DNA of 64,000 nt from Candidatus Latescibacterota bacterium (lineage in GTDB: Bacteria > Latescibacterota > CBDEFO01), in assembly GCA_965248755.1 (NCBI GenBank), contig OZ252149.1:3008001-3072000 (forward strand), in the 5' to 3' direction. Below, in pieces: positions 10,073 to 37,833 of the stretch (positions within the stretch are counted from its first letter, which is position 1; each line of letters starts with the position of its first letter). The position numbers and the translations under genes are program-made. The notes beneath the pieces are model-generated. The model was not told the DNA's origin. It saw nothing but the letters and a program-made list of their open reading frames with translations, and did no database searches.

Positions 10073-10258
10073 CTACTCAAAGGGGGCGTGTTTTGATCTC
10101 GTAAAGTAGTCGAGGACACTGCTTCTGGGCAGGAGGTACTGTTTTCCCGGCTTGTAGGCTGTGAGCAATCCGAAGTGTATTAGTTGACGCAAGTGTCTTT
10201 CTGAGCACCTCAGGAACTTAGCCGCCTCCTTGACTGTAAGCATGTCCTGGGTATCCAT
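10073..10258 (-). CDS. Excisionase-like HTH_17 DNA-binding protein (intact copy 3)
   Basis: MLTVKEAAKFLRCSERHLRQLIHFGLLTAYKPGKQYLL; RBS AAGGAG upstream. Confidence 0.8.
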   Translation of the reverse strand: MDTQDMLTVKEAAKFLRCSERHLRQLIHFGLLTAYKPGKQYLLPRSSVLDYFTRSKHAPFE

Positions 10259-10308
10259 CTTTTTCTCCTTTGACGAAAGCCTAATTACCGTTTTTGGTTT
10301 ACGGAGAC

Positions 10309-10414
10309 TGAAGGATTGAACCTTTTGAAGGGTTATCTATAAACTTTCTGAAAAACAAAAATTATTTTTTATAACAAAGTAATAGTAAAAAGGTTCAAAA
10401 GGTTCAGTGCTTCA
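10309..10414. other. Putative replication origin of the primase-helicase module
   Basis: Three TGAA iterons on the left mirrored by three TTCA on the right, including a perfect 13-bp IR (10317-10329 / 10394-10406) around an AT-rich core, directly downstream of the primase gene. Confidence 0.6.
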
Positions 10415-12754
10415 CTATTCCTCTCTATTCTTGATAAGTCCGATTCCCCGATAATAAACTCTACCGCCGGTTCCTCTATATCTGACGGACATCTCTCCCA
10501 TACGCCTGCCAAAGACCTTATTGCTCTTCGGCCTGAAACCATTTTCTTCACAGCCTTGTACGTATGTCCTATAGGCGTCTCCCGCCGGCACACTTGCTTC
10601 AGGGTCAACGTAAAAGTATTCCTCAAATATCTGAGCTATGTCGTCCTCCTCATCCTTATAGGCCTTCGTGGCCATCTTGACAGTATCTGGAGGCGCGAGG
10701 CCGTGTTCTTGGAAGTCGAGGCAGCCCTGGACGAGGCACGAGAGTATGCCCGATCCCTCTACTTTCAGTTTCTCCGCCAGGTTGGGGTCTCGCTTTCTTT
10801 CGTGGTCTCTTTGCGGGTCGTCCACAAACGAGAGATTGAAGGGTATCAGTCTGATTCTCTCCCAGAGGGCGTAGTCGTAGGCGTTTGCCTTCGGCTTGTG
10901 GTTGGTCTGGAGGAAGAGAGTAAAGGTGGGCCGAAACTCCACCTGGTGCTTCCCGTAGACCTCTCTTGCCACAAGGGAGTCTCCGCCTGATAGCCACTTG
11001 ACCTGACTGGTGTCCAGGTGGCGTCCCTCGTCGGATTCCGACGCCCAGACGAGGCGCTTGCCTCTGAGGGCCATCAGCTCCGATCTGGGAGAAGAGGCTG
11101 CGGGCCGAAAGCGGTTGTATAAGAGCATCTCCTTGGGGGCCTGCGAGACATAGGGACCCAGCACATCTGACAGCGCCTGAAACAAGGTCCCCTTGCCGTT
11201 CCTTCCCTGTCCCCAGAAGATGTAGAATTCGTGCTGTGTCGAAAGCCCTAACATAGAGTAGCCCAGCAGTCTCTTGACGTAGGAGATCAGCTCCTGATCC
11301 TCGTCGAAGATCTGAAAGAGGAACTCCTCCCATGCGGGACAAGGGGCGTCTGTCCCCTTCTTGGGACAGCCAATGTCTGTCCCCTTGTACTCCGTGGGGC
11401 AGACTGTCTTTATGTATTCCTCTTGTCTGCCTTCTCTCAATTCTCCCGTTCTGAGGTCTATAACGCCGTTGGGGCATGCCAGCAGGTAGGGGTTTCTGTC
11501 CCATTCGTGGCCCTCTATCGCCAGGGAATCTGCGCCGCTGGATGCGAGTTCAAGGACTTCGTCTGCCCGCCGCCTCGTGCTGAGCTGTCCGATTCTCTTT
11601 CTCAGCTGCTTCGTCTTCGTCTCGTTCTCCCCGATAGCTTCAATCGCTGTCTGGCTCTGTCTGTAGAGAGCGTCTTTATAGATCTGGATCACGCCCTCTA
11701 CGGAGGCCCTCGCCTCCCTGATCCTGTCGGGCGCCCAGAAGTGCCCCTTCCACTCGTACCATGTACCCTGGGAGCTGTCGTAGCAGAATCTGTCTCTGTA
11801 GAGCTTGACGAACAGTTTGGCGTCTCCGCGCTCGCCGTCGGAGAGAGCACAGAGGGTGTCCCCTGAAAGAGCGTAGGGGGTGTCACCTGAAAGAGCACAG
11901 AGGGTGTCCTCTGAAAGAGCACGAAGGGTGTCACTCTTTGGCTCTCCGTTGTAGGCGTTCGTGCCTACAGCGTAGGCATACGTGCCTGCCTTGTAGGCAC
12001 GCGTCCTGCCAATGGAGACCACGACCTGCTCCAGCTCCGATAGCTCAAGCGGAGGCCTGTTCTTCAGGTTCCATTCGACTAACTCTGCGCTGACCTCTGT
12101 CTTTGTCTTTCCCTGCCCGAAGAAGTGTCCGGCCAATCTTGCCGCGGAGTCGTTTCTGGAGCCTTCATCCACGCCATTTTCTAAAGACGGTAGAACAGAC
12201 ATTCTTGACTGTTTTTGTTCCCCGTCAGACAGGAACGTCTGACCTACTTTGCACGCATCTATTATCCATTTTGGACAGTCTGAGGGCATCTGGTTGTCGG
12301 GAGAGATGCGCCACTCGTATCGCCCTTTTTGATTCTCTGACGGAGGCACGACCACGTATCCGCCGTTTGCTCTCAGGTCTATGCCCTTCCGTCTGGCGAA
12401 ATTGCGGAGCAGTTTGGCTTCATCTCCGTCTTTCGGCATAGCGTAGAAGTAGTGGCGGCCGCCGGAGCCGGTCTTGCTGTACACAGTCGGCTCTCCGTCG
12501 TCCAGTTTCTCGAATGAGGTTATACCTTCTGATCCGTCCAGATCTACCACCACGACATTGGATATGTTGCCTGTCACGATCCCGATCTGTGCGTCTTTAT
12601 AGTCTCTCCACCACAACATAATCTGCTCCGGAGTCGCCCGCCCGCGCTGGTAGGCAAGCCACGAGATATAGGGCTTCTTGTCCGGCCGAACAGGGATCAC
12701 AGACCAGCCGATGGATTCATAGCCGAGCGCCGCAGATAATAGTTCGTCTGGCAT
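10415..12754 (-). CDS. P4-family primase/helicase (Prim-Pol, PriCT-1, D5_N, SF3 helicase)
   Basis: VVVDLDG, TGSGGRHYFY, IDLRANGGYVVVPPS; EGSRND; LLACPNGVIDL; Walker A GQGRNGKGT; TNHKP. Start placed at MPDELL. Confidence 0.92.
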   Translation of the reverse strand: MPDELLSAALGYESIGWSVIPVRPDKKPYISWLAYQRGRATPEQIMLWWRDYKDAQIGIVTGNISNVVVVDLDGSEGITSFEKLDDGEPTVYSKTGSGGRHYFYAMPKDGDEAKLLRNFARRKGIDLRANGGYVVVPPSENQKGRYEWRISPDNQMPSDCPKWIIDACKVGQTFLSDGEQKQSRMSVLPSLENGVDEGSRNDSAARLAGHFFGQGKTKTEVSAELVEWNLKNRPPLELSELEQVVVSIGRTRAYKAGTYAYAVGTNAYNGEPKSDTLRALSEDTLCALSGDTPYALSGDTLCALSDGERGDAKLFVKLYRDRFCYDSSQGTWYEWKGHFWAPDRIREARASVEGVIQIYKDALYRQSQTAIEAIGENETKTKQLRKRIGQLSTRRRADEVLELASSGADSLAIEGHEWDRNPYLLACPNGVIDLRTGELREGRQEEYIKTVCPTEYKGTDIGCPKKGTDAPCPAWEEFLFQIFDEDQELISYVKRLLGYSMLGLSTQHEFYIFWGQGRNGKGTLFQALSDVLGPYVSQAPKEMLLYNRFRPAASSPRSELMALRGKRLVWASESDEGRHLDTSQVKWLSGGDSLVAREVYGKHQVEFRPTFTLFLQTNHKPKANAYDYALWERIRLIPFNLSFVDDPQRDHERKRDPNLAEKLKVEGSGILSCLVQGCLDFQEHGLAPPDTVKMATKAYKDEEDDIAQIFEEYFYVDPEASVPAGDAYRTYVQGCEENGFRPKSNKVFGRRMGEMSVRYRGTGGRVYYRGIGLIKNREE
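11839..11934 (-). repeat. 24-bp x4 coding tandem repeat in the primase linker
   Basis: Encodes DTLRALSE / DTLCALSG / DTPYALSG / DTLCALSD. Confidence 0.8.
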
Positions 12755-12889
12755 CTGGCTTCCTCTTGGCGTTGTAGGGGTATATGTGCCTTCGGCAAGA
12801 TGTGCCGAAGGCAAGATGTGCGTGTCCTCTACAAAGGTGCTGTCTACTATTTAAGTGCATATACATTAGTACACTATTGTAACTGACAT

Positions 12890-12934
12890 AATATAGGACA
12901 TGCAAAGGCCAAAGTCAAGCCGCAATCTTCCTAT
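12890..12934 (-). promoter_or_regulatory. Sigma70-type promoter of the primase unit with shared upstream motif
   Basis: Minus strand reads ATAGGAAGATTGCGG-C-TTGACT-N17-TATATT. Confidence 0.75.
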
Positions 12935-13156
12935 ATGGAGTGAGAAAGGTTTCTGCGCTCGTACGTGCGCGTGCGTTTGCTCAGTTTGGGTCAGTCCCAG
13001 CGCCAGCGGAAAGGTACTTGAGTCGGGCGAGTGATCCCTGATAGAAGCAGTCGGGGACGCCCCTGCGTTGTGTCTGCTCTCTTGACTTTTCCCCACGAAT
13101 TCATCATACTACCAGGTGGAATCAGGAAGGGGCGCCTACTTTGTAGGAGTTGAACA

Positions 13157-13498
13157 ATGCGTGATATCATAACAATATCCGTCCTTTTTACTGTGCTGGG
13201 GATGTTGCATCCATCAGGCCCATGTGCGGAGGAGATAACCAAACTGGATCTCCTGCAGATGGAAAACAGGCTGAAAGAGTATATAGATCTGAGGATTTCT
13301 TCTGTACACATCAGGATAGATGAAATGGACAAAAGGATTGGCTTAGTTCAGTGGATGATAGCCTTTCTTTTTATCATAATAGTAGTTATTCAGGGGATAC
13401 CTCAGTTTGCAACTTTCTACAGAGAGCGACGAGACACTTTGGAATTCAGTCACCGTCTGGATCAGATGGAGCAGAAATTAAGCAGTCTGGCACAATAG
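13157..13498 (+). CDS. Hypothetical coiled-coil membrane protein, opposite strand to the phage genes
   Basis: RBS AGGAG, N-terminal signal-like stretch, one TM helix. Flanked by a degenerate direct repeat of about 54 bp. Confidence 0.65.
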   Translation: MRDIITISVLFTVLGMLHPSGPCAEEITKLDLLQMENRLKEYIDLRISSVHIRIDEMDKRIGLVQWMIAFLFIIIVVIQGIPQFATFYRERRDTLEFSHRLDQMEQKLSSLAQ

Positions 13499-13609
13499 AA
13501 AGCAAAATTCCTGACTACCTCGTTTTGCCCATCGGGAGAGTGGTCCCCGATAGATTCAATCGGGGATCGCCCCTGCGTTGTGTCTGAAGTCCCAGCAACA
13601 TAGATAGTT

Positions 13610-13840
13610 TCATCTCAACCACCTCCCGAAGAAGGGCACAGTCGCCGAAAGCGCCTCTGCCAGTTCCTCTATGACTTCCTCCACTTCTTCCTGAGTCCAG
13701 CCGTCTTTTCTGTTGGCTCTTATGCTGGTTACCACATCCTCCCACTCCTTTGCAGCCTTCCTGGACCGCTTATACCAGACGGCGGCAAAGAGACCTATCC
13801 CTGTTACTGCGCCTCCGATTCCCATAATCCAGTCGAACAT
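13610..13840 (-). CDS. Small membrane protein of the lysis cassette
   Basis: N-terminal TM helix; translationally coupled to the upstream gene. Confidence 0.55.
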   Translation of the reverse strand: MFDWIMGIGGAVTGIGLFAAVWYKRSRKAAKEWEDVVTSIRANRKDGWTQEEVEEVIEELAEALSATVPFFGRWLR

Positions 13841-14082
13841 TATTTGTCACCTCCTAAAATGGATTTTAGCGCCATCATGACTCCTGCTGCTCCGCCTCCT
13901 GTTATTGACCCCCAGAGACCCGATTTGACCTTGAGTTGAGCGACATCCTCTTTCATCCCGATGATCATTCGATTATTCTCCTTCACATCACGGCTCACCG
14001 ATTCGATGTATTCGGTCAGATTGTCCAGCCGGGCTACAACTTCGCCCTCAAAGCGACCTCTTTGTCTGTCGTTATCATTCAC
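13840..14082 (-). CDS. Holin-like protein (coiled coil + C-terminal TM)
   Basis: XhlA-like layout, directly downstream of the amidase with an ATGA overlap. Confidence 0.55.
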   Translation of the reverse strand: MNDNDRQRGRFEGEVVARLDNLTEYIESVSRDVKENNRMIIGMKEDVAQLKVKSGLWGSITGGGAAGVMMALKSILGGDK

Positions 14083-14576
14083 TTTAAGAACCTCCCAAGT
14101 ATCTCTCTAATCTGATCCATCTCTATATCGGGGCACGTCTTACTGGTCGCAAAGTTCGGCTTGACCCTTCCGATCTCGTAGTGTCCTATCACGTTCTGGG
14201 GGCGAACGCCGAACTGTCTCATCCATCTCTGGGTCTGCCGGAGCGCAGTGCAGATCTGGTTGAGTGTGTAGTCTCCGCCCCTTCCTATAAGGCAGATGGA
14301 TATGGACTCTCTATTCAGACCGTAGGCATGAGCCTGCAGCTCATCTGCCTCCAGCTCCGAATCTTGATCCAGCGGCCTGCCCGTCTCCAGCATACCATCC
14401 AGATGGGCTGCGTATCGCCCTTCTTTTCTGTCCTGTGAGGTCAGATAACCGTTCAGGATGACGGCTCCGTAACCTACCCTTGACCAGCCTCTTTCTCTGT
14501 GCCAGCCATCTATTGTGATCGCCGATCCGAACGTTGAATCGCTGGCATGCCAGACTATGTATTCAGCTCGTGACAC
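14079..14576 (-). CDS. N-acetylmuramoyl-L-alanine amidase (Amidase_2, T7-lysozyme-like endolysin)
   Basis: YIVWHAS, IDGWHRERGW, AHAYGLN..SISICLIG, VIGHYE, KTCP. GTG start after RBS GGAGG. Confidence 0.88.
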   Translation of the reverse strand: MSRAEYIVWHASDSTFGSAITIDGWHRERGWSRVGYGAVILNGYLTSQDRKEGRYAAHLDGMLETGRPLDQDSELEADELQAHAYGLNRESISICLIGRGGDYTLNQICTALRQTQRWMRQFGVRPQNVIGHYEIGRVKPNFATSKTCPDIEMDQIREILGRFLK

Positions 14577-14769
14577 CTTGATTCTCCTCCAATTGACAGG
14601 GTGAATGCCCTTCTGATATTGTCCCGCAGGATGTGCACTCCCATATGCCCTTTTGGGGATCATATATCATGCCCTCGTAGCAAAAGGAGCAGACCCGCCG
14701 AGGCGGATCGTATCTGATGACTTCCTGTTTCTCCTTGTCCCATTCGGCTGTGAGTTTGATTTCAGACAT
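14563..14769 (-). CDS. Small Zn-ribbon protein
   Basis: CSFC...WECTSC motif; RBS GGAGG before MSEIK. Confidence 0.55.
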   Translation of the reverse strand: MSEIKLTAEWDKEKQEVIRYDPPRRVCSFCYEGMIYDPQKGIWECTSCGTISEGHSPCQLEENQGVTS

Positions 14770-14861
14770 TGTTTTAGGTGTCCTCCAATTCCGTAGGGGC
14801 AGACCCGTGTGTCTGCCCTTCGTATGTCTGACTGGGCGAACACATGGGTTCGCCCCTACAT

Positions 14862-15476
14862 TCATACTGTCCCATCCGTTGTGTACTCTATCTCCAGATC
14901 CAATAATCTAAACAGCCCCGTGTGAGTGTCGTTCGCGCTTGCCCCCTGACGCTCCAGCTTGATGGCTGCAATATCTGTCTTTGCTGAGAGTGCAGCAGCC
15001 GGAACGTTAAAGGTGCTGTCCTGTTCATACACATTGGCGCTGTCGTCAGGATTCAAGGTGTTGGCAGATGATGTCGGCGTTCCGAGCGATGAGTTCAGGC
15101 TCGTAACAGTCCGGGAAAAGGACAGTTCCACATTCCCGCTATGGGCTGTGGTCATAACGTATGATAGGACTACGGCTATAGGCTTGGTTATGTCGCAGTC
15201 GTGCGGGCATTCAAACGATGCCCTGATGGTATTCGTGGCAGTCGTAGAGAAGTCCAGCCCGGGATAATCTCCTGTAAGGGCTTCGGCGGGCGGATTCGTC
15301 CCATCCAGCCTGATTGCTCCCCAGAGCGATGCCCGCACCAAATTGCCGGCCTTCAGATTATCAATGTCTATATTGCCGTTGAACTCGGTGTAGATGACGT
15401 CAAAGTTGCGGTTTATGGCGTATGCGCTATTTGCGCCCAAATCTCTTATCTGGTAAGGCTTGGCAATGAATCCCAT
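14862..15476 (-). CDS. Putative tail / needle-associated structural protein
   Basis: Lies after the nozzle gene; N-terminal AINRNFDVIY anchor-like motif, beta-rich C-terminus. Confidence 0.55.
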   Translation of the reverse strand: MGFIAKPYQIRDLGANSAYAINRNFDVIYTEFNGNIDIDNLKAGNLVRASLWGAIRLDGTNPPAEALTGDYPGLDFSTTATNTIRASFECPHDCDITKPIAVVLSYVMTTAHSGNVELSFSRTVTSLNSSLGTPTSSANTLNPDDSANVYEQDSTFNVPAAALSAKTDIAAIKLERQGASANDTHTGLFRLLDLEIEYTTDGTV

Positions 15477-15595
15477 TATCTTATCCTCTGAATCGTTTCG
15501 AGTGCGCCTGTGGGACTAGATCCACAACAGATGAATGTAGGGGCGAGGTCTACTCGCCCATGGGCTGGGAGAATGGATGCTCTGTCTATTGTCTG

Positions 15596-17086
15596 CTATC
15601 CTCTGAATCCCCTTTCGTTTGCCACAATGGACAGTCCGCCGAGCGAAAAGTCTCGCTGTGAGGACTCTGTGATCTTAAACTGGATGTATCTGCCTGCCGC
15701 ACCGTCCAGCGGCACTCTGTGGACGCTTCTGGAGTTTACGCCCGAAAGAGAGTAGCTGCCTGTGGCTGTCGCGGCAAAATCTACGAACCACTCCACGGTC
15801 AACGTCACTCCGCTTGCGTGGGCGTCCTCCACGAAGATGTAGGAATATCTGAAAAGCTTGGTCGTGTCTGCACGCTTCAAATCGAAACTTTTGGTCTTTA
15901 TCGTTACGCTTATGTCTGCCGAGGGCGGATCGTTGAGTCCCGTATCGGCCTGTGAGACGAAGCCTGTTCCATCTCCTGTCCATACTATCTGTGACTCTAT
16001 CGGGATGCCCGACAGAAGCGGATCTGCAACGTAGGCAAGTGCGTTCCCCGTGATCCCTGTGAACTTCGTCCAGGCATTGTTGAGATAGTCGTAGACGAAA
16101 ATGATCGTATTATTCGAGCCCCCCGACGGCGTCAGAGCGATCCAGTATTGATTTCTCTTTCGGTTGTGGCAAGATGCGGCCCTGGAAAGACGCGTCAGAT
16201 TAAGGGGGGTCGGACTGTCAGGGCCAGACGAGACGAGGTCCTCGATCTTTTCGGAGATGTAGTTCACTCGTGTGCCCCGAAAGGCGTAGACTCCCCTTTC
16301 GCCGTAGAAGTAGAGGCTGTCAGGGCCAGATGAATCGTCCGTGATGTTCTGTATGGAGTTTTGCGCAAGGCATCCCACGTCAGACGTGATCTGGGATACC
16401 TTGAAGATCGAGCCCGAATCACCCGACAGCGTATATATAGAGTTGCGCTTGAAGATGACCAACTGATCAAAGAGGACAGCAAGTCCGCTGATTTGATCTC
16501 CATCGTCCGGATTTATATCTATGTGGTCGCCGGATGTCCATACCTCAGGATTGTTCACCTTGGAGTAGTAGAGCCTCGATGGATCGGTAGAATTCCCCGC
16601 CAGGAAGAGATAGTTGTTGAATAGCTTCAAAAACTTTCCTTTTGGAGGAGACCCTCCCAGATCGGCGAAGGTGGTGCCGTCGTATTTCTTGACGTTATCC
16701 GTCCCGTTGGTCAGAATCAAAAGGTCGGTAAAGGTCTCAAAGCCCCACGGCAGGCCGTTGGTCAAGCCCGTAGCAATAGAATCCAACTCCAGAGTCGAAG
16801 TGTTGTACTTGTAGACCTGTGTCCCCGCCGTGACGATAATCGCCCTTGTCCCATCTTTCTTAACGTAGTCGTAGATTCCGGTTATAGAGGCAGAGATAGA
16901 GGTCAAGTTTCGCCTTTCGTGCCCCTTTCTCTTGACCCATGCGCCGTGTGTGTCCAGGTGGATATTGTCCAACTGGACAGCGTCTTTGTCTGGAAACGAC
17001 CCGACAGACGCCTTACTGTTTAGGCCTCCCGTGTTGTCAACATACGGGATCTCGATGTAGCTCTTTTTCCTTTTAGACCTTGTCAT
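15596..17086 (-). CDS. Podovirus tail nozzle / DNA stabilisation protein (P22 gp10-like beta-propeller)
   Basis: GGLNS, LDNI..DTHGAWVKRKG, RLYYS, LVIFKRNSIY, DVGCLA and IFVYDY.NNAW motifs; follows the adaptor gene. Confidence 0.75.
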   Translation of the reverse strand: MTRSKRKKSYIEIPYVDNTGGLNSKASVGSFPDKDAVQLDNIHLDTHGAWVKRKGHERRNLTSISASITGIYDYVKKDGTRAIIVTAGTQVYKYNTSTLELDSIATGLTNGLPWGFETFTDLLILTNGTDNVKKYDGTTFADLGGSPPKGKFLKLFNNYLFLAGNSTDPSRLYYSKVNNPEVWTSGDHIDINPDDGDQISGLAVLFDQLVIFKRNSIYTLSGDSGSIFKVSQITSDVGCLAQNSIQNITDDSSGPDSLYFYGERGVYAFRGTRVNYISEKIEDLVSSGPDSPTPLNLTRLSRAASCHNRKRNQYWIALTPSGGSNNTIIFVYDYLNNAWTKFTGITGNALAYVADPLLSGIPIESQIVWTGDGTGFVSQADTGLNDPPSADISVTIKTKSFDLKRADTTKLFRYSYIFVEDAHASGVTLTVEWFVDFAATATGSYSLSGVNSRSVHRVPLDGAAGRYIQFKITESSQRDFSLGGLSIVANERGFRG

Positions 17087-17237
17087 TATTCTGCGTCCTC
17101 TCAAGTGGCAGGCAGTAAACAGGGGGGTTCACCCCGAAGCAATCTCGTTTTACAGTAGACAGATCGTAGGGGCGAGGTTCACTCGCCCAGGGGGCAGGGT
17201 TCGCCCTTGCCTTTCCCTGTCTACTGTCTACTGTCTT

Positions 17238-17342
17238 ACGACCCGACAGATGCCTTACTGTTTAGGCCTCCCGTGTTGTCAACATACGGGACCTCGATGT
17301 AGCTCTTTTTCCTTTTAGACGTTGTCATTATTCTACGTCCTC
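17238..17342 (-). pseudogene. Duplicated 5' stub of the nozzle gene
   Basis: Encodes MTTSKRKKSYIEVPYVDNTGGLNSKASVGS*, nearly identical to 16997-17101. Confidence 0.85.
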
Positions 17343-17700
17343 TATATGCAAGACCGCTATTGTAGGGGCAGCCCGGGTGTCTGCCCTGGGGACAGGGTTC
17401 GCCTTTGCGTTGCCCTGCCCCAATCGAACCCCCGTTGGTCATTGCGAGCGGAGCGAAGCAATCTCGTATGTGCTTCCTTTGTGAAAGAACCGAGATTGCT
17501 TCGGGGTGAACGCCTCTTGAGCAAGAGGAATGAACGCCCGATACAATCATTCGGGGGCAGGCCCCCTCGCAATGACTTAATGAAAGCAGTGTCATCGCCA
17601 GCATACGCAGAACCTTGTAGGGGCGAGGTTTACTCGCCCTGGGGGCAGGGTTCGCCCTTGCCTTTCCCTGTCTATTGTCTACTGTCTACTGTCTACTGTC

Positions 17701-18663
17701 TTACGTTCTGTCAAATAGAATGTTAGAGAATCCCCTCAGATGTCGTCCCTTCCTTCTCAGACCTACAGGCTTTACTCTGATGCCTCCATCGTAGTCTCTG
17801 GCGTCCTCCCAGACGAGGGTATTCAATTGGCTTTCGTACAGACTTTCTGCGTCTTCGGCGTAAGGGTCATCCAGCCATCTGTTGGCCGCTGCCAGCCCTT
17901 TAAGATAAAGCAGCCTGTGGTACTTGGCGGGCAGACCTGATGTATCGCTTGTCGAAGAAAGCTCCGAAAGGGTCTTGTAGTAGCGGTATGAAATCTGTAT
18001 TACCTCTCTGGGGTACGGATAGAACAGAGCCTGAAGCGCCCCATTTGAGTCTCTCACTTCACAGTAGATGCTCGGAATCCCAGACGTATTGGCATCCAGA
18101 TCGGGGACGGTCTGCTCCAGGTCCCTTATGTCCATCTTCTTTAAAGCAGGGAAGCTGTGTCCACCCAGAATGAGACTTGCCCCCGGCAGCTTCGTGTGAA
18201 CCATCTCCATTATCTCGTCCACATCAGAGGCAAGGCTGTACTCCCTCTGGAAGATGGAATAGCTCTTACCCGCTGCAGTCGTGCCGATATAGTTTGTGGT
18301 AAGCTCAAGTGATGTATCGTTCGTTATGGAACTTATGACGTAGGTACTATCGTCGCCATCTACTCTGAACCGGTCGCCTGCGTTTACGTTTGCCGAAAAG
18401 GCCGTCCCTGCGCCCGTTACTGTTGCATCACCGTTCGTCACGCTCACAGTACCGGCACTGTAGACGGCCTTCGTCTGAAAGACACCTGTCTTCTGCTGCC
18501 AGCGGTATCGCCTTCTGGAAAGCACATCCTCCTGCGCCCGATTGATCTGATCTATTATGACCCTGGTAAGCCCCAAGGGACTCCCTGGAATAGAGCCTAA
18601 AGTCGGCTCGTGGACCTCTGTGAGCACCTCATTTACCAGCGCTAGCAAAGTTCTGGATGGCAT
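17701..18663 (-). CDS. Head-tail adaptor (tail tubular A-like) with inserted beta domain
   Basis: TLLALVNEVL, INRAQEDV, REYSLASD, LFYPYP and LPAKYHRLL motifs; GTVSVTNGDATVTGAGT insert. Confidence 0.7.
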   Translation of the reverse strand: MPSRTLLALVNEVLTEVHEPTLGSIPGSPLGLTRVIIDQINRAQEDVLSRRRYRWQQKTGVFQTKAVYSAGTVSVTNGDATVTGAGTAFSANVNAGDRFRVDGDDSTYVISSITNDTSLELTTNYIGTTAAGKSYSIFQREYSLASDVDEIMEMVHTKLPGASLILGGHSFPALKKMDIRDLEQTVPDLDANTSGIPSIYCEVRDSNGALQALFYPYPREVIQISYRYYKTLSELSSTSDTSGLPAKYHRLLYLKGLAAANRWLDDPYAEDAESLYESQLNTLVWEDARDYDGGIRVKPVGLRRKGRHLRGFSNILFDRT

Positions 18664-18789
18664 ATTTTATTTCCTTAGTTTTTGGTAGTGGGTCAGACCC
18701 CCCTTTAATTTCCCTCTTACCAAGGGGGGATACAGGGGCGTTCCTGTCTGACATCCTTAGGGGGCAGCCCTCGCCCCTACATTCTTGAT

Positions 18790-19059: not shown

Positions 19060-19260
19060 ATTCTATCACCTTTTTGTTTATGGTAGACAGTAGATAGAGA
19101 CAGATGGCACGACCAAAACGGGTCGCAAAAGGGGGCCGACCACAGCGGGTCGGCTAAGAGGGCCGACCAAAACGGGTCGGCTAAGGGGGTCCTCCTACCT
19201 ACTGTTCTACTGTAGGCCTCCTGTCTACTGTTCTACTGTCTACTTGTTTCCCCTATACTA

Positions 19261-29442: not shown

Positions 29443-31440
29443 ATGAAAAGGAGGATTAGCATGGATTGGAAGATCAGTATAGTAGCTTTGGCGCTTGCAC
29501 TTTCGTTCCCTTTTTCAGCCTGGTCCGATGTTGTAGGAACAACTTACTCCACCATTTTGGTTGAAGATCCAAAGATTACTTTAAATGGGGATTTAGCAGA
29601 CTGGGAGAAGATAGGGTTAGAGCCAGTCAATATTGAACATTTCTGGTTTGGACCCACAACAGATGCGGCAGACATTTCGGGAAACTTCCGGACTTTTGTG
29701 AGTAGGGATCACCTATATATAGGGGTTAAGGTAAGCGACGACCTGGTGTGCTCAGGCACTACATGGGGCAGAAAATGGTTTCAGGATGATGTCGTGCAGA
29801 TATCTTTTAATGGGGATCTGGACGCTGACAAGATACCGGTGTTTGAGATATGGGAGAAGGACTATTTCGATCTCAACGACGGGGAGATACAGATTGTGGC
29901 GGACGCACCGGGAAAGGTTCATCTGGAAGGTTCAGGAGTCTTTTTCTATCCCGTGACAGATCCCTACGATCAGGAGATTCCGTATACATGGGAGCTTTTA
30001 GGAGTAGAGGCAGTAGTTAAGCGTACAGATACAGGATATATAGTTGAAATGCGTATACCTAAAGAAGTATTAGGTGTGGAGCAATTCGTTCAAGGAACCC
30101 AGATCGGTTTGAATGTGCGAATTATAGATGATGATGATGGGGGAGAACATGACAATGTTTTAAGTTGGACTAGAGAAAAGGAAACCGAGGGTACGATACC
30201 CTATGGGATAGTACAGGTAGAAGCAGTTCCAGCGGCTTCCGAGTTGGTAGATTTAGTTGTTGGGGAGGTGAAAGTAGAAGAAGGTTCACAAGAGCTGTTG
30301 GTGACTATGGAGCCGCAGGAGAGCTCAGAAGTGCACGCTATTTCTGCTCTTATCTCCGAAGGAAAGGTAACTGAAGCTCAGGCCAAATTGGAGGAATGGG
30401 TCGAGATCCGTAAGGAAGATACGCAAAGAAGACGGGCGGTGTACCTTCTGGGGAGATTTTACTGGCAGTCTGGACAGTATCAGAAAGTGATTCAGACAAT
30501 GGAAAAACTTGTGCATCTTTCATCATCAGAGATTGTAAGATGCCAGGCTCTACAGGTGATGGCTAATGCGTATGATGCCTTGGGGGAATATCAAAAAGCT
30601 ATTACGAGTTGTGAGCAGATACTCAATATTGTAGACTCAGGTTCATATGTGGCAAAGTATGCGACCGTAGAAATGGGGCTATATAAGATCAAACTGGGAG
30701 AATATGAGCAAGGCTTGCGGATGTATGAAGAGGCCTGGAAGGAAAGAGAAGGTTCTCGACTATTAGCGTTTGGAGCTGCTTATCAAGGACAGGGTATATA
30801 TAAGGATGCCATTGCCCAATATGAGAGTGATGTCGTACAAACAGTGCATCCCAGGATCAAACTGGTAGGACTTGAGCAAGTGGCGAAGATGTATGAAGAG
30901 TCTTGGGAGGTTTTGGAGCGTAGAAAAGATTCCCCTGGGCAAAGCTGGGTATCAATTCTAATGGCTTTAGTGTACGTTTATGAACAACAAGGAAGACATA
31001 GGGAGGCCATTGCCCAATATCAGAAAGTAATGGAGCTATATCCCAACCTTGAAGCATTGGCTCAATATTCGATAGGCCACAATTACTGGTTACTGTTTGA
31101 AGTTGATCGTGCTATCGTGGAGTTCGAAAAGGTACTGGATAATTATGCTGACGTTATTTCTAAAGAGTACCTTGCTAATACACAAAATTTCTTGGAACAA
31201 CTCTATGCTATTAGAAGAAATTATCCCGGAGAGGAATGGAGGGTAGTCGGAGAAGCTTTGGATATGGTGAATGCTGGCAGATATGAGGAAGCTGCAACCA
31301 TATATAAAGATCTCCTTGACCATGTTCATGAGGGCCTCAATGGCCGACTCATTCGCAATGTAGCTGATATGTTCCGCAAACGGGGAGTGTTTAAGGAAGT
31401 CTTCTCCGAATTCCTGGAATTGCAGGGAATTGAACAGTAA
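29443..31440 (+). CDS. Secreted CBM9/DOMON-like sugar-binding domain + TPR protein
   Basis: ITLNGDLADW..LYIGVKVSDD..GYIVEMRIP..IGLNVRIIDDD followed by multiple TPRs. Confidence 0.8.
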   Translation: MKRRISMDWKISIVALALALSFPFSAWSDVVGTTYSTILVEDPKITLNGDLADWEKIGLEPVNIEHFWFGPTTDAADISGNFRTFVSRDHLYIGVKVSDDLVCSGTTWGRKWFQDDVVQISFNGDLDADKIPVFEIWEKDYFDLNDGEIQIVADAPGKVHLEGSGVFFYPVTDPYDQEIPYTWELLGVEAVVKRTDTGYIVEMRIPKEVLGVEQFVQGTQIGLNVRIIDDDDGGEHDNVLSWTREKETEGTIPYGIVQVEAVPAASELVDLVVGEVKVEEGSQELLVTMEPQESSEVHAISALISEGKVTEAQAKLEEWVEIRKEDTQRRRAVYLLGRFYWQSGQYQKVIQTMEKLVHLSSSEIVRCQALQVMANAYDALGEYQKAITSCEQILNIVDSGSYVAKYATVEMGLYKIKLGEYEQGLRMYEEAWKEREGSRLLAFGAAYQGQGIYKDAIAQYESDVVQTVHPRIKLVGLEQVAKMYEESWEVLERRKDSPGQSWVSILMALVYVYEQQGRHREAIAQYQKVMELYPNLEALAQYSIGHNYWLLFEVDRAIVEFEKVLDNYADVISKEYLANTQNFLEQLYAIRRNYPGEEWRVVGEALDMVNAGRYEEAATIYKDLLDHVHEGLNGRLIRNVADMFRKRGVFKEVFSEFLELQGIEQ

Positions 31441-31569
31441 GACTAACAATTATATTGGGTTAGATTCCCGGCAGAAGAGAAGAGTATTGTCTTTATGAAC
31501 CACAAGTCCATATTGAGCAGAACACCATAAGGTTGGTAACCTTTAAGTGGTATGGGAAGGGAGATAAAG

Positions 31570-32088
31570 ATGAAGCCAAGAGAAATTATAATTCTGTTTG
31601 TCATGTTAATAGTAACAGCGTTTTTGGGGAGCAGTACTTATGCCTGGCATGACAATATTCATGCGTTACAGGGTCAGTATACGAATAGGGGTATAAAAGT
31701 GCCAGATGCTAGTAAATTCTGTTCTACTTGTAGTGCTACATTTTTCAATTCTAATGAGATTAACAGTAACGACGGTAATCCCGACTTCTACTATGATGCA
31801 ACTTTCTGGAGCGATATGGACTATGCCCGTGTGCTGAACGGGCAGGTTGATCTAAATAGTGCTTACAGAACTCCAGACCATGATATTGATGAGGGTGGGG
31901 TGCTAAACAGTCTCCATCAATATGGTAATGGCGCAGATGTAGGCGCAGTAAATGGAAAGGCTTGGAGTGCAATGTCCGGTGATGAAAGGGATGACTTCAA
32001 AAATTCGTTCGATTCAACTTATGAATTTACTGAATATGAAAACAACAGCCATCTTCATGTAGAACGGGGTGGATATTGCGATTATTAA
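31570..32088 (+). CDS. Secreted peptidase M15A-like (Hedgehog/DD-peptidase fold) protein
   Basis: SAYRTPDH..GGVLNSLHQYGNGADV..HLHV resembles the M15A SxH..AxD..HxH signature; signal peptide present. Confidence 0.65.
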   Translation: MKPREIIILFVMLIVTAFLGSSTYAWHDNIHALQGQYTNRGIKVPDASKFCSTCSATFFNSNEINSNDGNPDFYYDATFWSDMDYARVLNGQVDLNSAYRTPDHDIDEGGVLNSLHQYGNGADVGAVNGKAWSAMSGDERDDFKNSFDSTYEFTEYENNSHLHVERGGYCDY

Positions 32089-32201
32089 ACTGATGGAACT
32101 GCATATACGCCGAGGCGTCTGGGTAATTAGAAGATTCACGCACAGCTATTCCATTTCAGAGTTCTTATAGTAAGTTCAACGATACTTGAAAGGAGCACAA
32201 G

Positions 32202-33029
32202 ATGGGACAAAAACTCTCCCTACCACTATCATTCTTTGTAGGTGTCACTTTGGTTCTTTACACTATTCTTTGGATACCTATTAATGTGAATGCGTCCACC
32301 TTGCCTGATCTGAAGGGTTGGACTTTTTCAGATGATGATGCTCAAATCATCAAGTATGCTGATATGCATTCTGCAAGTGCTGTGCTTAGTAAATTGTACA
32401 CGCTTTTCATAAAAGAAGGTAAAGAAGCGGTGATAGAATCTGTACCCGCGTTAGTATATAGATTCCATGAGCTAAGAAAGATACCGCCGGAAAAGCATGG
32501 AGGCGAAGGTCAAGGAGAATTTGAGGGGTCGATTATAGATTTCTTGGGCAGATTAGGCGATGAGCGCTCCAAATCCGCTCTGCTAGAATCAATGGAGTAT
32601 CACTGTCGAGCAGCAGTCAAAGGACTGTTAGCTATTGGACACTCGGTAGTTCCAGACATTATCAATTTAATAGGTAGCCCTCGAGTGAGAATGAAAAAGG
32701 GAGCCATAGAAACCCTTCGTCAGATGGGTAAGTTGGATCCCACTTTTTTCACTAAAGATGAACGAGATAAAATCAGGAACAGACTTGTAGCGCTCTTGGA
32801 GAATGAGAACGTCAAGCCCGGTGAGAATTACAGTTTTAAAGTTGTCTTGGCCTTAGACGTCTTTGGTGATCTTTCCACAATCCCTATTCTGGAAAAGATA
32901 GCGGAGCAGGATTCATTCATTAATTATGGTAGATACCCAACAAGGATCGCAGCACAGAAGGCAATAGAAGAGATAAAAGTTGCGCAGCAATCAAAAAACG
33001 TGATACCGAGCCCTGTGAATTCTGAGTAA
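32202..33029 (+). CDS. Exported HEAT-repeat protein
   Basis: Signal peptide; LGRLGDERSKSALL and ALDVFGDLSTIPILE repeats. Confidence 0.7.
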   Translation: MGQKLSLPLSFFVGVTLVLYTILWIPINVNASTLPDLKGWTFSDDDAQIIKYADMHSASAVLSKLYTLFIKEGKEAVIESVPALVYRFHELRKIPPEKHGGEGQGEFEGSIIDFLGRLGDERSKSALLESMEYHCRAAVKGLLAIGHSVVPDIINLIGSPRVRMKKGAIETLRQMGKLDPTFFTKDERDKIRNRLVALLENENVKPGENYSFKVVLALDVFGDLSTIPILEKIAEQDSFINYGRYPTRIAAQKAIEEIKVAQQSKNVIPSPVNSE

Positions 33030-33307
33030 TATATGTATGGGTTCCATATTTCCAGATCGAGGTGGTATGATTTGGAATATTTATGAAATCGATGGCAGTA
33101 TGTCAAATGTTTTGAAGAAGTGCATGATCGCCTCCTTCATTGACATATCTACTATCACAGCTCAATTTCTTTAAGTAAACCACCATTACTAAACCACATT
33201 CTGTTCCGCTTTCCCAAGTTTATCTGCAAGAGAAATTACTTCGTTTCTGACAACTGCAGCCTTTTTAAGGCTGAAATCTGTGAAATCACTCAAAGTCCTT
33301 CAGAATC

Positions 33308-33513
33308 CTATATATCATCCAAACTCCTAATTTCCCTCACATATTCAGCCCCACACTTCACCAGCATATCTTTGATCAGGAAACGATGGCAGAACAAATC
33401 TGCCCGGCAATAGCAGACAAGCATCACCTCTTCCATGTTGAGGACCTTATCCCACCTTTGACTGTTGTACTGATTACTCTCCTGCATCAAAAAGAATATT
33501 GGCGAGTGTATTC
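33308..33513 (-). pseudogene. DUF488-like C-terminal fragment next to IS3
   Basis: WDKVL..VMLVCYCRADLFCHRFLI motif; frameshifted at its 5' end. Confidence 0.5.
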
Positions 33514-34779
33514 TGTACTGCCCCCCTGGAAAGCGACACCGATTAAGCAACTTGGGGTAGCAGATATTATTGTTTTCTCCATTCTTGCAGGGTCTTGTAT
33601 CCCAGGGATGAATGAAGCCTGTTCTTGTTGTAATTATCGATCCACTGAGATATGATCTTCTCAGCCTGTTCAAAGGATTCAAACTTGTGAAGCCAAACAC
33701 ACTCTTGCTTGAGGGTCCTGAAAAAACGCTCTACAACACCGTTCCAATCGGGTTTACCACTTGGTATGTATTCCTGACGAATTCCCCAATATTCGGTACT
33801 GGCCAAATAGGCCCGAGCCAAAAAGATGGAACCATTGTCAGAGCGCAAAGTGAGACCCTGGGGGACAGCCTCCTTGGAAGTGTATCGAGAGATCACGGCC
33901 CGATCCAGGGCATCTGTGGCCTCCAGTGCCCTCCCTTTTCGACTAAAACGATACCCAGGAACCTCCCGGCTTCCGTTGTCCACCACCGCAATAAGAGGAC
34001 ACCAACCATCTTTTCCACAGTAAATCTTTGTCAAGTCACTCGACCACAAACTGTCGGGACTATCCACCACAGAACGCTTCTGGGCAACCTGTGGCCCCTT
34101 TCTCCCGGGACGATTCCACAGCTTACACTGCCACCCCTTAAGCTTCATTATCCTATGAACCTTCTTAACGTTGACACATTCCCCTTCCTTGAAACGAAGA
34201 TGCGCCCAAACCCGCCTGTGACCAAATGCCTCTTCTTGGTCCAGTATCCCTCGAATACGAAAAGCAAGCTCCTCATCTATCACAGGCTCTTTAACAGAAG
34301 AACTGACACCTCTATCCCTAAACCTATACAGAGTCGAACGATGCAAACCCAAAGCCAAAGCTACCACCTTGCGGGAATAGCCTCGACCCAAAAACCGCCC
34401 ACTCAAGGCAACCGCTTCGTTTTTTTTAGACGGGCTACCTCTTCGAGTATCTCCAACTGGAGCGTCAACTGCCCTACCTTGCGCTCCAACCGGCTAACCT
34501 CTCGCTCCTTCGGATCCTTGCGACCACGCCGAGACTTCAGACTCTCCTGGCCCCCTTCTAAGAAACTATCACGCCAAGCATACGCCTGCGACTGGCTAAT
34601 TCCATTCTTACGACACACCTCAGATAGATCTGCTCCTCTCAAAAGAGCCAACACAATCTCTCCCTTACGGGTCGCCGTCCAGCGCTTACCATCTTTCACT
34701 TCGGGGCTCGACACCTTGACCTCCCTTCTCAAACCCCAATTTGCGAAATATTTGTCGCTCTGTCAAGGGGAGCGGTATG
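33514..34779 (-). mobile_element. IS3-family element, copy 2 (orfA 34403-34732, orfB 33567-34406)
   Basis: Identical to copy 1 except the last ~85 bp; 4-bp target duplication ATTC. Confidence 0.92.
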
Positions 34780-34974
34780 ATTCATCCTTAAACGTCTTGT
34801 GAGTCTTCCTGCCTGCTGCCCTGTCTGATGCCAGAGGCAAAACAACTATAAGTGCAAACGCTATGATTAGTGCCATTGTAACAATGTTAATCAATCGAAA
34901 CATGAGTCTCTCCTTCCGTGTATTGAAGGTAGCTTAATGATACTAAATATTTAACCCCAAATATACAAAAGAAA

Positions 34975-35391
34975 ATGACGGATGCTAATTTAGAAAATTT
35001 AGAGGGTGAGAAGTTCACCTTATCGCAGATGAAAGGGAAAGTAGTGCTCTTCGACCTCTGGGCGACATGGTGCGGTCCCTGCATAGACGCCATTCCGGAA
35101 ATCCAGAACGTTCACGACCACTTCAGCTTCGCAGATGATGTGATAATCTGGGGCATAAACAGCGGAGAACATCCCGATAAGGTGGGGGCGTTTATGGAGG
35201 AGCACAAGCCCCCCTGGCCTATTTTGCTCAACCAAAAGCGCGAAGTCAACAAAGCCTATGGCATCAGTGGCATACCGACCTTTATCCTGATAGATAAAGC
35301 CGGACGCTGGCAGCACACTCGTATAGGCTACAGCGAGTGGCTCGGTCAGGAATTGATCTGGTTGATTGAAGCCCTTCGGGCAGCGGATTAA
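34975..35391 (+). CDS. TlpA/ResA-like thioredoxin domain, probably a truncated C-terminal part
   Basis: KGKVVLFDLWATWCGPC..YGISGIPTFILIDKAG; no signal peptide. Confidence 0.8.
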   Translation: MTDANLENLEGEKFTLSQMKGKVVLFDLWATWCGPCIDAIPEIQNVHDHFSFADDVIIWGINSGEHPDKVGAFMEEHKPPWPILLNQKREVNKAYGISGIPTFILIDKAGRWQHTRIGYSEWLGQELIWLIEALRAAD

Positions 35392-35600
35392 GCTTCCTTG
35401 ATTTGGTGTCGATACCGCCACACAGTGTCATTTGTTTTTCAGTAGGCAAGATGAGTATTGAATGAACGTCGCACTGAGCTTGGGAATCTCTCAAAGCTGA
35501 AGCCGAGCACCGTCATTGCGACCTCCGATTGACTCTATCGGGGGCAACGAACCAATCTCAAGGGATGGGGGGATGTATCACCTGTCTACTGTCCACTTGT

Positions 35601-37163
35601 TTAGTATCCTGTGATCCTGTTTCGGGTCAACGCTTGTCGTCTTCCAGCAGTTGTTCTCCCGACCCGCGGCGCTCGCATCACAGGTGCGGTCTTGAGCATC
35701 TGCAGGGCAATAGCCTGAGCGATCACTCTATCATCGTAGCATCCTTCCTGCGCACCCATACCGCCAGTCTCATCTCTCACAAATGTAAACATCTCTTCCA
35801 CGGTCTCCCTGCTGTTCAAGGTAACACCCTCATCTCTTAATGATCCCGCAAGTTCATCGATCATTAAGGGCTTAGTTCTGGCGTTAGTCAGCCATCCTAA
35901 TTTTCGTGAATACCTTGACGGTGAGCCTTTAGTTTCCCTGTCCACTGTCTGGCGGTAATAGACATTGGGATAGCCAAGGTAGCGCTTAAGCGTAACCAAA
36001 GTAGTCAACCCGTGGCCATTTGCCTCCACACCTACAAAGGCATCGTTGTAGAACCTCCCCAGCTTAAAAAGTTCGGTCCCGAAAAGATCAGGATCGGTAT
36101 GGCCGTGCCATTCAGCCACCTGCTCCCCCGTATCTCTTCTGACCACTTGAGCGGACGAGTAATCGCCCTTTTCGAGTCCCTCTGATACATCGGCGCCGAT
36201 CACGTACAGAGCGCCACTCTGCGGAGGCTCCCATATCTTTATTGGCCCATCTTTGGAATGTTCCAGGACGGGCCCAGAATGCGTGTCCGCACGCGCAGGT
36301 AGATCGGACGGTCTGAACCCTTCGGAAGAAATCGTGTCCATATGTAGAAAGCCTCTCGTCAAACAATCCTTACAACCGTCTAACGACACCCTCAGGAGGG
36401 CGGTATCGAACACACATCTTCCACTTATGGAGACAAAGCGCCCCCTGACCCTTATCTCCTTCTCCTCTTCTGAATAGTTCCGTTCCACCCGTTCTATTTC
36501 TTCTTTGGGGATGTAAGGATTATCGTTGAGTGCCGCGGAGAATATCGCTATATCAGGGTCAGAGCTATTTTTGTATATGTGCCTATAAAACCAGGTGAAT
36601 CCCTTCAGGGGCGTCATAGTCCCCCAGATTTCACCCTTTACGTCAACTGTTCTCATAAAACACTCGCGATAGATATCTTCAGGCGGCTCTTCATCGAACC
36701 ATATCCAGTGTCTTGTTACGCCCTGGAATTTATCCCTTCCGGAGTCACACGACTTAAAGCCTATTTCTGACCCATTTTTGAGTTTGATAATCCGGTCGGT
36801 TCTGTTCCAGACATCTATCTGGGATTCGGGCAGATATTTTCTGATCTTTTGCTCTGCGACATCCCTTGATGAAGAAAAGTCAGACGAGACGATCCATCCG
36901 AAATTTGGGACTGGGATATTTCGCTGGGGAGTGAAGCGGTGCTTCCCCAAAGCGAACATAACCACCTCTACAGCGCCAGCCTCTGTCTTCCCAGCTCTAT
37001 TTCCTGCGATAAACCAACGATTGCGCTTGGTAGATCTGTGAAATAGCCTCTGCTTTGGATGAGGCTCATACTTGGACAGAGCAGACGGAAGCCATTCGGC
37101 CTGCCGTTCGAGTTCATCAATTACAGCCTCAACTTTCTGATTGTAGCGCTTCTTTGAGTTCAT
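35601..37163 (-). CDS. terL: Terminase large subunit
   Basis: PHPKQ, Walker A AGNRAGKT, Walker B IWFDEEP, TMTP, nuclease YVIGADVSEG..GDYS and YDDRVIA. Confidence 0.93.
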   Translation of the reverse strand: MNSKKRYNQKVEAVIDELERQAEWLPSALSKYEPHPKQRLFHRSTKRNRWFIAGNRAGKTEAGAVEVVMFALGKHRFTPQRNIPVPNFGWIVSSDFSSSRDVAEQKIRKYLPESQIDVWNRTDRIIKLKNGSEIGFKSCDSGRDKFQGVTRHWIWFDEEPPEDIYRECFMRTVDVKGEIWGTMTPLKGFTWFYRHIYKNSSDPDIAIFSAALNDNPYIPKEEIERVERNYSEEEKEIRVRGRFVSISGRCVFDTALLRVSLDGCKDCLTRGFLHMDTISSEGFRPSDLPARADTHSGPVLEHSKDGPIKIWEPPQSGALYVIGADVSEGLEKGDYSSAQVVRRDTGEQVAEWHGHTDPDLFGTELFKLGRFYNDAFVGVEANGHGLTTLVTLKRYLGYPNVYYRQTVDRETKGSPSRYSRKLGWLTNARTKPLMIDELAGSLRDEGVTLNSRETVEEMFTFVRDETGGMGAQEGCYDDRVIAQAIALQMLKTAPVMRAPRVGRTTAGRRQALTRNRITGY

Positions 37164-37536
37164 CGATCTTTCCTTCGATCAGGTCCTCAAGTTCACTTCT
37201 GATCAATCTCTGCTTATCCTCTCCGCTGCTTACTTCCTCTACCTTTTTATCCTTAATCTCACTTAGTATCTTATGATAAAGACTCAGAGCAGTCATATTC
37301 CCCTCATCCATCTGCTCTTGTAATCTCATAACGAACTTGAACTCCAAAGACCTTAGGTACTGCTCCGTAAGGCCCTGCTCGAAATCCACAAAGGCGCTGT
37401 CCCTTTGCCATTGGTTATAAAGCGTTATGCTGACCTTTGCCTTCTTAAGCGCCTTTGACCTATCTCCTTGGACATCTGCATCCATCAGCGCCTCAAAGTA
37501 GGCCTTTTGCTTTTGATCCGCTTCAAAATCGGACAT
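37129..37536 (-). CDS. terS: Putative terminase small subunit
   Basis: HTH-like ALKKAKVSITLYNQW..DSAF; EGNMTA; overlaps the terL start. Confidence 0.7.
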   Translation of the reverse strand: MSDFEADQKQKAYFEALMDADVQGDRSKALKKAKVSITLYNQWQRDSAFVDFEQGLTEQYLRSLEFKFVMRLQEQMDEGNMTALSLYHKILSEIKDKKVEEVSSGEDKQRLIRSELEDLIEGKIDELKEALQSES

Positions 37537-37584
37537 AGTACCTTCCTTACTAAACAACAGTGCACTATTTACCGGACAGACATA

Positions 37585-37652
37585 AATATAAAACAAACCC
37601 TGTGGTTAGTCAAACCGCAGGGTTCGCTATCTTCCGCTATCTTCCTATTTGG
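37585..37652 (-). promoter_or_regulatory. Promoter of the terS-terL unit
   Basis: Minus strand: ATAGGAAGATAGCGGAAGATAGCGAACCCTGCGGT-TTGACT-N17-TATATT. Confidence 0.8.
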
Positions 37653-37833
37653 GAAAGAATTCTTTGTTTAAGGCTTAACAGACCCAGTCTAATGAAGAAA
37701 AAGATAGACAATAGACAGGCTGCTCTCTCACTATCTACTGACAACTTGCGACAAAACAGATGGGAGGATGTGCCCTGTCTACGCCCGATTGCATCCCCGA
37801 TTGAATCTATCGGGGAGCGGGGGCTACTGTCAC

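Follow-up and report, generated by a model that had tools for sequence, protein, structure and literature searches.

A probably domesticated, young podophage remnant in Candidatus Latescibacterota, in the midst of loss in a sister species

Gene transfer agents (GTAs) have been given a definition as viriforms (PMC9662315), and the known ones share, according to the comparison in PMC11841831, a small terminase subunit (TerS) that lacks a DNA-binding domain, a hallmark rather than a formal criterion. A podovirus-like, GTA-like element has already been published, the FpGTA of Faecalibacterium prausnitzii (PMC12946183). Here we describe a podophage-derived locus of 27.6 kb within a stretch of 64,000 nucleotides (the window, G000:C1:3008001-3072000) of a genome of Candidatus Latescibacterota, a lineage of the FCB group, whose 4.54 Mb lie on one contig (G000), and compare it with the corresponding locus of its sole congener in the genome collection (G001, also Candidatus Latescibacterota). 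A sequence-only reading of the window had proposed a domesticated, podovirus-type, GTA-like system in an FCB-group host. The host group, the sharing of the locus between species and selection on its genes agree with that proposal, whereas the GTA status is not supported in view of the helix-turn-helix (HTH) domain of TerS, the lack of recognisable ejection genes and the broken major capsid protein (MCP) of the sister species. Thus domestication is supported and identity as a gene transfer agent is not. Our verdict is that the podophage remnant is real, young, independently domesticated and midway through loss. Literature queries that paired Latescibacterota with gene transfer agents or prophages returned no papers.

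The phage genes lie on the minus strand, and the cluster runs from terS and terL through an 8-kb insert of host genes to the portal gene and on to a primase-helicase and an HTH_17 gene, with a net phage part of about 18.9 kb (10073-26940 plus 35601-37660). The open reading frames (ORFs) first read as intact over some 19 kb, namely terS, terL, portal, scaffold, cement, MCP, adaptor, nozzle, amidase, holin-like and primase-helicase, are all present and open, with the labels scaffold, cement and holin assigned from where the genes lie, how large they are and their synteny with phage contig L015, not from a named family. Virion-like proteins of Caudoviricete origin, as known from the genes alone, are recognisable by family for TerL, TerS, portal, MCP, adaptor and nozzle. 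As the sequence-only reading had noted, neither an integrase nor an att pair accompanies them: the nearest tyrosine-recombinase match is about 290 kb away (15 matches genome-wide), serine recombinases lie at 2.44 and 2.48 Mb, no att-like repeat and no duplication of a tRNA or tmRNA end flanks the cluster, and no cognate integrase with att sites was found beyond the window. A tmRNA or tRNA was considered as the att site and set aside, there being no duplication to back it. In free relatives the fibre gene is followed by three large genes, of which two match 'DNA ejection' PHROGs. Ejection or fibre genes elsewhere in G000 were not recovered by blastp of 1644 phage ORFs or by phmmer with 24 phage queries, and ejection genes were not recovered by PHROGs 598 and 4287 or by a composition screen that took in 2859 ORFs; because proteins of this kind diverge quickly, the genome-wide failure to find them is not proof of absence. 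The initial remark that no long tail fibre or large ejection proteins are recognisable needs one correction, in that a short tail fibre is encoded at 14862-15476. The integrase and att sites, repressor and ejection proteins of an intact temperate podophage were not found, and the locus has the features of a non-excising, fully endogenised element: no nearby integrase, no att, a host insert inside, and the same position in the congener.

The locus of G001 shares with that of G000 its flanks, its TPR-lipoprotein insert and its deletion junction across nozzle, fibre, zinc-finger and amidase genes, so an orthologous cluster at the same site, which the sequence-only reading had proposed looking for among relatives, does exist in the congener, although it is confined to one genus. 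In four sequencing runs, drawn from four studies, 27-29 of the 30 bins into which the core was divided are covered, and two of the runs (X4, X5) share indels with G001. Of 13 listed sequencing runs none was identified as particle DNA, and no RNA run holding the locus was among those listed. Synonymous divergence (dS) between the two species is 0.101 for virion genes versus 0.118 for host genes. Codon models gave omega (dN/dS) values of 0.253 for the virion genes (15 genes, 4026 codons; 2dL 191 versus omega = 1), 0.330 for host genes (71 ORFs, some broken or spurious) and 0.19 for lysis genes. As a neutral control, a shared broken rep gene gave 0.79, not different from 1; it sits broken at the same host locus in both species (G000:C1:2070950-2072000 and G001:C3:381400-382420; L235). 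Values of about 0.2-0.25, set against 0.79 for the broken gene, thus match the early prediction of a ratio below one. Under neutral drift about 25 stops would be expected on each branch, with never fewer than 14 in 500 simulations, and 0 are observed in G000 and 2 in G001. Codon usage of the locus correlates with that of the host at 0.94, versus 0.84 for the closest phage contig. The absence of insertion sequences (IS) from the core was considered as further evidence and not used, as none was seen where about one or fewer would be expected. All of the divergence between G000 and G001 post-dates the shared losses, and therefore a locus unable to excise or, apparently, to inject has for most of its history after the species split been kept under what the codon data indicate to be purifying selection. 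Orthologous position, host-like divergence and core omega below one are the marks of a domesticated defective prophage, and all are found here; Bobay et al. (2014) reportedly saw purifying selection on structural genes of such prophages. At the level of sequence, gene loss, a shared locus, vertical divergence and purifying selection are all established.

We consider it about an even chance that the host has kept a grounded podophage as a particle-making, DNA-packaging locus, locus-biased and GTA-like, which the sister species has recently stopped using. A temperate podovirus with a capsid of the HTVC023P/CRP-901 type would have integrated in the ancestor of the genus, and before the two species split the integrase, att sites, repressor, ejection proteins and tail spike would have been lost while an insert of host genes divided the locus. 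The portal operon would have come to carry a copy of the terS promoter, after which vertical inheritance and selection for particle making would have followed. The three sigma-70 promoters may switch on together in a few cells, with GGAAGAT repeats as candidate operator, and the primase-helicase may amplify the region in place, as in the run-off replication of BaGTA. The HTH-bearing TerS and TerL would then fill heads by a headful mechanism, probably starting at or near the locus; a short fibre tipped with a carbohydrate-binding module (CBM) would bind a surface glycan, and holin and amidase would release the particles. Lacking an ejectosome, the particles could release DNA at the surface or into the periplasm, where uptake by ComEC would be needed; ComEC is intact in both G000 and G001. 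Packaging is more likely locus-biased than random because TerS has an HTH domain and the heads of relatives hold more than the 27.6-kb locus. A more far-reaching version, which we hold to be doubtful, is an independent podovirus-type GTA of an FCB lineage that works without an ejectosome, its CBM mini-fibre docking heads on kin, its DNA passing to the competence machinery after run-off amplification, and its loss in progress in the sister species.

Several observations weigh against a particle-making function kept by the host. Podophage DNA delivery normally depends on ejection proteins, as PMC12002296 presents it. The MCP profile is found in only 2 of 168 genomes of the phylum (TerL in 2 of 61), and MCP ends at residue 258 in three of four assemblies, including all three of the sister species; with two species only and MCP truncated in most assemblies, any benefit must therefore be dispensable. 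The neutral control is a single short gene of 332 codons. Broken virion genes in G001 (3/15) are no commoner than broken host ORFs (13/71), the residue in G000 is the rarer one at both MCP differences, though over six genes homologs favour the G000 residue at 20 sites and that of G001 at 10, and a loss of function within roughly the last tenth of the G000 branch would be compatible with its zero stops. Numerous decayed remnants of the primase-HTH and rep kinds, with promoters of the cluster's family, also give G000 the look of a phage graveyard. As for GTA identity, TerS scores 30.4 bits against PF13022 (curated cut-off 27.9), so that the HTH domain is present, and it is conserved in G001, where the protein is 95% identical; the hallmark of a TerS without DNA-binding domain is thus missing. 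Inheritance is vertical across the two species (dS 0.10 vs 0.12), with the locus broken in one and present in just these two genomes. Because this hallmark is lacking and two of the six viriform features are established, we do not file the locus as a GTA.

Another account, to which we give a low probability, is a helper-dependent selfish remnant: it would replicate in situ, package its own DNA from a pac site close to terS, take ejection proteins from related podophages that infect the cell and spread by homologous recombination through its flanks. Selection would then act for its own spread, or for an island at 3.934 Mb resembling a phage-inducible chromosomal island (PICI), and not for the host. 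The retained HTH of TerS fits such a life, as do the element's own primase-helicase and HTH_17 gene, a satellite-type pair, and the genomes of phages with the same MCP family, which at 40-65 kb (20 listed of 23) exceed the 27.6-kb locus. The PICI-like island looks intact in G000, and G001 has only split relatives of its integrase, 59-62% identical. Yet the searches turned up no close helper phage (best MCP 54-65%), the core dS is at or below that of the host and gives no hint of incoming phage alleles, and no terS was recognised in the island. The island itself (G000:C1:3934247-3942262; L208:9247-17262) encodes a tyrosine integrase, an HTH_26 regulator, an 853-aa Prim-Pol/PriCT-1 protein and an HTH_17 protein, has no close ortholog in G001, and has integrase-family remnants at several other sites.

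A similarly small probability attaches to an ordinary grounded prophage in slow decay that makes no useful particles now, its low omega being a lag that reflects sorted ancestral functional alleles or selection against toxic mis-assembly. The state of the locus in the sister species speaks for decay: besides the shortened MCP, the portal gene has a stop at codon 445 in G001 only, the scaffold-like gene and one holin are frameshifted there, and a 16-kb assembly is broken at additional points, perhaps in part through assembly errors. Tip changes in the G001 clade are also more radical than fixed ones (negative BLOSUM scores for 10/16 vs 20/69; Fisher p 0.019), which is supporting evidence only, as polymorphisms are generally more radical, and the genome as a whole has seen IS bursts (two counted elements with 47 and 52 near-identical copies in G000) and holds many phage remnants. 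What slow decay leaves unexplained is that the divergence came after the shared deletions, yet omega is 0.25 and stops number 0-2 against the roughly 25 expected, that the shared broken phage gene evolves near neutrality, and that the promoter copy is kept in both species. Read-through of TAG in G001 was considered and rejected: the stops arose by single transitions from codons for different residues (Trp, Gln), and frameshifts occur alongside. Least probable is domestication for an end other than gene transfer (DNA-filled glycan-binding decoys, PBSX-like killers, podophage interference, or regulated lysis and DNA release), which would suit a cluster that keeps fibre, nozzle and lysis genes while ejection genes are not found, and which the account in PMC12946183 leaves open for FpGTA too, but family searches recognised no toxin or pore-forming cargo in the cluster, and lysis alone leaves the strong constraint on MCP, portal and TerL unexplained.

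The wider distribution of related modules is sporadic. The collections searched held no near-identical free phage, a finding that would have told against the sequence-only reading: the best matches were 65% for MCP, about 40% for portal and 33% for nozzle. L015, the contig with the closest MCP, has the same gene order from terL to the post-MCP gene and forms the sister branch of the locus in a quick MCP tree. Host genes adjoin the MCP relatives of a Gemmatimonadota bin (L014) and of L016 and L020, which raised the idea of a wider domesticated family; we rejected it, as these relatives are sporadic and fall in separate clades of the same tree. A full-length match occurs in 1 of 151 genomes around L014 (three more are weak) and in 3 of 101 around L020. 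The related head modules (L014:1278-5545, L016, L020; MCP 54-61%) come from bins of Gemmatimonadota, Bacillota and Vulcanimicrobiota, where they sit next to host genes or are interleaved with them, and the portal of one of them (G169) carries stops. Terminases in 6 further Latescibacterota genomes of the 168 gave no blastp match to TerL of the locus. Two genomes from another genus of the phylum (L247 and L249, in G062 and G063) share a TerL at 63% identity that is by blastp unrelated to it, possibly part of another conserved prophage or domesticated element.

Turning to individual genes, TerS (37129-37536, 135 aa) has its HTH domain at the N-terminus (PF13022, phrog_24579), and TerL (35601-37163, 520 aa) is a Terminase_6N/6C protein, the only Terminase_6N match in G000, with Walker A and B, coupling and nuclease motifs all intact and omega 0.13 (NG86, G000 vs G001). 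Its matches to solved structures, as regards packaging class, are weak; its ATPase motifs presumably resemble those of P22 TerL. The host insert that splits the cluster between terL and portal (27350-35520, plus strand) shares only its TPR lipoprotein (27350-28321) with G001, and the remainder is lineage-specific, comprising a multi-copy secreted-protein cassette, an IS3-type copy and a thioredoxin-like gene. The cassette (28774-33029) consists of FlgD-Ig, CBM9/TPR, peptidase M15 and HEAT-repeat genes and has 2-3 more genomic copies, in which the first two genes are 74-98% and the last two 38-53% identical. The statement that many neighbouring genes are pseudogenes applies to this insert and to the left flank, where IS copies and fragments lie, and fails for the right-flank host block, which is largely intact.

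The SU10/P22-like portal (24922-26787, 621 aa; SU10_portal) is followed by two small conserved ORFs (24425-24941) in synteny with L015 and L009, by the scaffold-like protein (23664-24410, 248 aa), which is 27% identical to the scaffold-position ORF of L015 and contains host repeats in frame at 23906-23928 and 24171-24193, and by a glycosyltransferase (22698-23393) with PHROG matches and 54% identity to L015. A conserved head-module ORF (22282-22731) has homologs in 7 of 163 loci, and the protein in cement or decoration position (21705-22211, 168 aa; phrog_37556) has them in 88 of 163, upstream of MCP in the loci inspected. MCP (20638-21540, 300 aa; Phage_capsid_4/Mu-like gpT) differs between G000 and G001 by 10 synonymous and 2 non-synonymous changes. 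The phage protein after it (19261-20220), whose homologs likewise follow MCP, falls in Atlas clusters that are 98-100% viral; a beta-helix likeness is a lead only, Beta_helix being found on 11% of one cluster's members. A small structural-module ORF (18790-19059; phrog_28102) completes this part.

The tail module comprises an adaptor (17701-18663; PF24175 SU10_adaptor) and a nozzle or stabilisation protein (15596-17086; phrog_3287, with 'phage stabilization protein' matches), the start of whose gene is duplicated over 106 nt (16996-17101 and 17238-17343). The next ORF (14862-15476, 204 aa) is, as modelled, a short tail fibre with a carbohydrate-binding-module fold, an N-terminal anchor bearing a CBM-like jelly-roll head, and a putative receptor-binding protein. 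The model reached pLDDT 85 from an alignment and 36 from the single sequence, its head aligns with CBM structure 7zvo (Z 12.2, root-mean-square deviation 2.5, 126 aligned), the N-terminus matches the post-nozzle collar fibre of phage L239 (pairwise E 1e-4), and omega is 0.17; the predicted fold of the head is by itself no proof of glycan binding. Beyond it lie a small zinc-ribbon ORF (14563-14769) with two CxxC motifs seen by eye, its end replaced by a repeat in G001, an Amidase_2 endolysin with a likely GTG start (14079-14576), and two small holin-like membrane ORFs (13610-14082) with a weak XhlA match below cut-off, the second frameshifted by a 16-bp insertion in G001 and in runs X4 and X5. 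The primase-helicase (10415-12754) has Prim-Pol/PriCT_1/D5_N domains and an IS-broken paralog at G000:1887869-1892793. The latter belongs to a second promoter-primase-HTH module (G000:C1:1887640-1893165; L007:12640-18165), 98% identical in the N-terminal part and split by an IS and a duplicated gene fragment, which suggests recent duplication or gene conversion. The last gene (10073-10258) encodes an Xis/AlpA-like HTH_17 protein with 9 off-locus tblastn matches in the genome. Remnants of the primase 3' end, of HTH_17 or of both occur in the window at 4235-4292 and 6735-6957 and in G000 near 58400, 285400, 3084700 and 4187570, and three of these form a tandem row at the left flank, separated by different cargo.

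The observation of three homologous host-style promoters holds up: terS, portal and primase are each preceded by a sigma-70 promoter of the form TTGACT-N17-TATATT that has GGAAGAT repeats upstream. That of terS-terL (37585-37650), where the repeats are direct, is kept in G001; the portal-operon promoter (26868-26935) is a copy of it, 83% identical over 78 nt and conserved in both species, and the primase promoter (12890-12940) is a third copy, homologous to the first, with one repeat deleted. The core hexamer pattern occurs 63 times genome-wide and is therefore of host type. The longer promoter family also stands before the second, IS-broken primase, before a patatin fragment and before a host gene for an M6-peptidase/beta-helix protein, and in G001 before the broken rep gene of the neutral control, which resembles a phage replication initiator (a label given by reading, not by family search). 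The family is thus not private to the cluster and marks no hidden structural locus, and a search for ejection or fibre genes behind the same motif, which had been suggested as a check, came back empty across the genome, the motif copies preceding other genes. The M6-peptidase gene (1080 aa; G000:C1:628353-631697, L233:10353-13697), which has the promoter in G001 too, may have co-opted it from a phage. Of the 13 cluster gaps longer than 60 bp, 11 contain repeats (14-mers with at least 10 copies elsewhere); the genome as a whole has them in 446 of 1277 gaps, and the adjoining host block in 6 of 16. The claim that host palindromic repeats sit in nearly every gap is accurate, whereas the long residence drawn from it is not secured: the repeats turn over fast and differ between lineages, and therefore cannot by themselves date residence. 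Elsewhere in the window, a tandem array of a 17-nt unit lies in a broken ABC-transporter ATPase-like gene (59079-59571), and elsewhere in the genome a lone 233-aa ORF (G000:C1:4305615-4306316) resembles, by eye and with no search made, a phage single-strand-annealing protein.

The locus bears on how a prophage becomes a GTA and on why hosts keep the structural genes of defective phages. Known GTAs are old and their intermediates lost, and this locus looks like a young intermediate: grounded, rewired and selected, yet with an HTH-bearing TerS and its own replication gene. Because the sister lineage has just inactivated its copy, the genus offers a natural comparison with and without the locus. 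If the particles do deliver DNA without ejection proteins, they would represent a new delivery route for podovirus-type particles; if they do not, the locus would be a clean, dated case of selection on an injection-incompetent prophage.

PICIs and capsid-forming PICIs combine a Prim-Pol/D5 primase with an HTH_17 protein and lack part of the infection apparatus. The locus has the same gene pair and an incomplete infection apparatus, but unlike them it has neither the integrase and att sites of its own nor the horizontal spread that define such islands, keeps its own tail, fibre and lysis genes, and is fixed at one position. The free podophages MW202785 (temperate, with an integrase), HTVC023P, CRP-901 and contig L015 all have the order terL-portal-scaffold-cement-MCP, and MW202785 also has adaptor, nozzle and fibre downstream; complete free podophages differ in their 40-61 kb, their ejection genes and their tail spikes or long fibres, with protein identity of at most 65%. 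FpGTA, compared here by its published description, is likewise a chromosomal podovirus-like set of terS, terL, portal, scaffold and MCP with a fibre or receptor-binding protein and holin-endolysin genes, split into units, and its published description does not show DNA delivery either (PMC12946183). That description gives FpGTA a TerS without obvious DNA-binding domain, an operon I in 12 of 12 Faecalibacterium genomes, and particles of about 40 nm with about 9 kb of DNA (PMC12946183), whereas the Latescibacterota locus is known from its genes and has an HTH in TerS, a linked primase-helicase, a host with an outer membrane (inferred from the phylum) and a range of two species, one of them broken. 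BaGTA of Bartonella, as described, resembles the locus in setting particle genes beside a phage-derived replication function and in a near-consensus sigma-70 promoter (TTGACA-N17-TATCAT, against TTGACT-N17-TATATT here), and differs in its presence in many Bartonella species, its packaging of 14 kb, its TerS without DNA-binding domain and its Q-like antiterminator (PMC9662315, PMC11841831, bioRxiv 10.1101/2024.11.20.624540); no antiterminator was recognised at the locus. With the grounded or domesticated defective prophages described in PMC6379469 the locus shares the lack of an integrase, vertical inheritance and an insertion hot spot, and it is set apart from them by a head, tail, fibre and lysis set that is complete except for the ejectosome, by rewiring with promoter copies, and by a loss in the sister species whose timing can be read directly.

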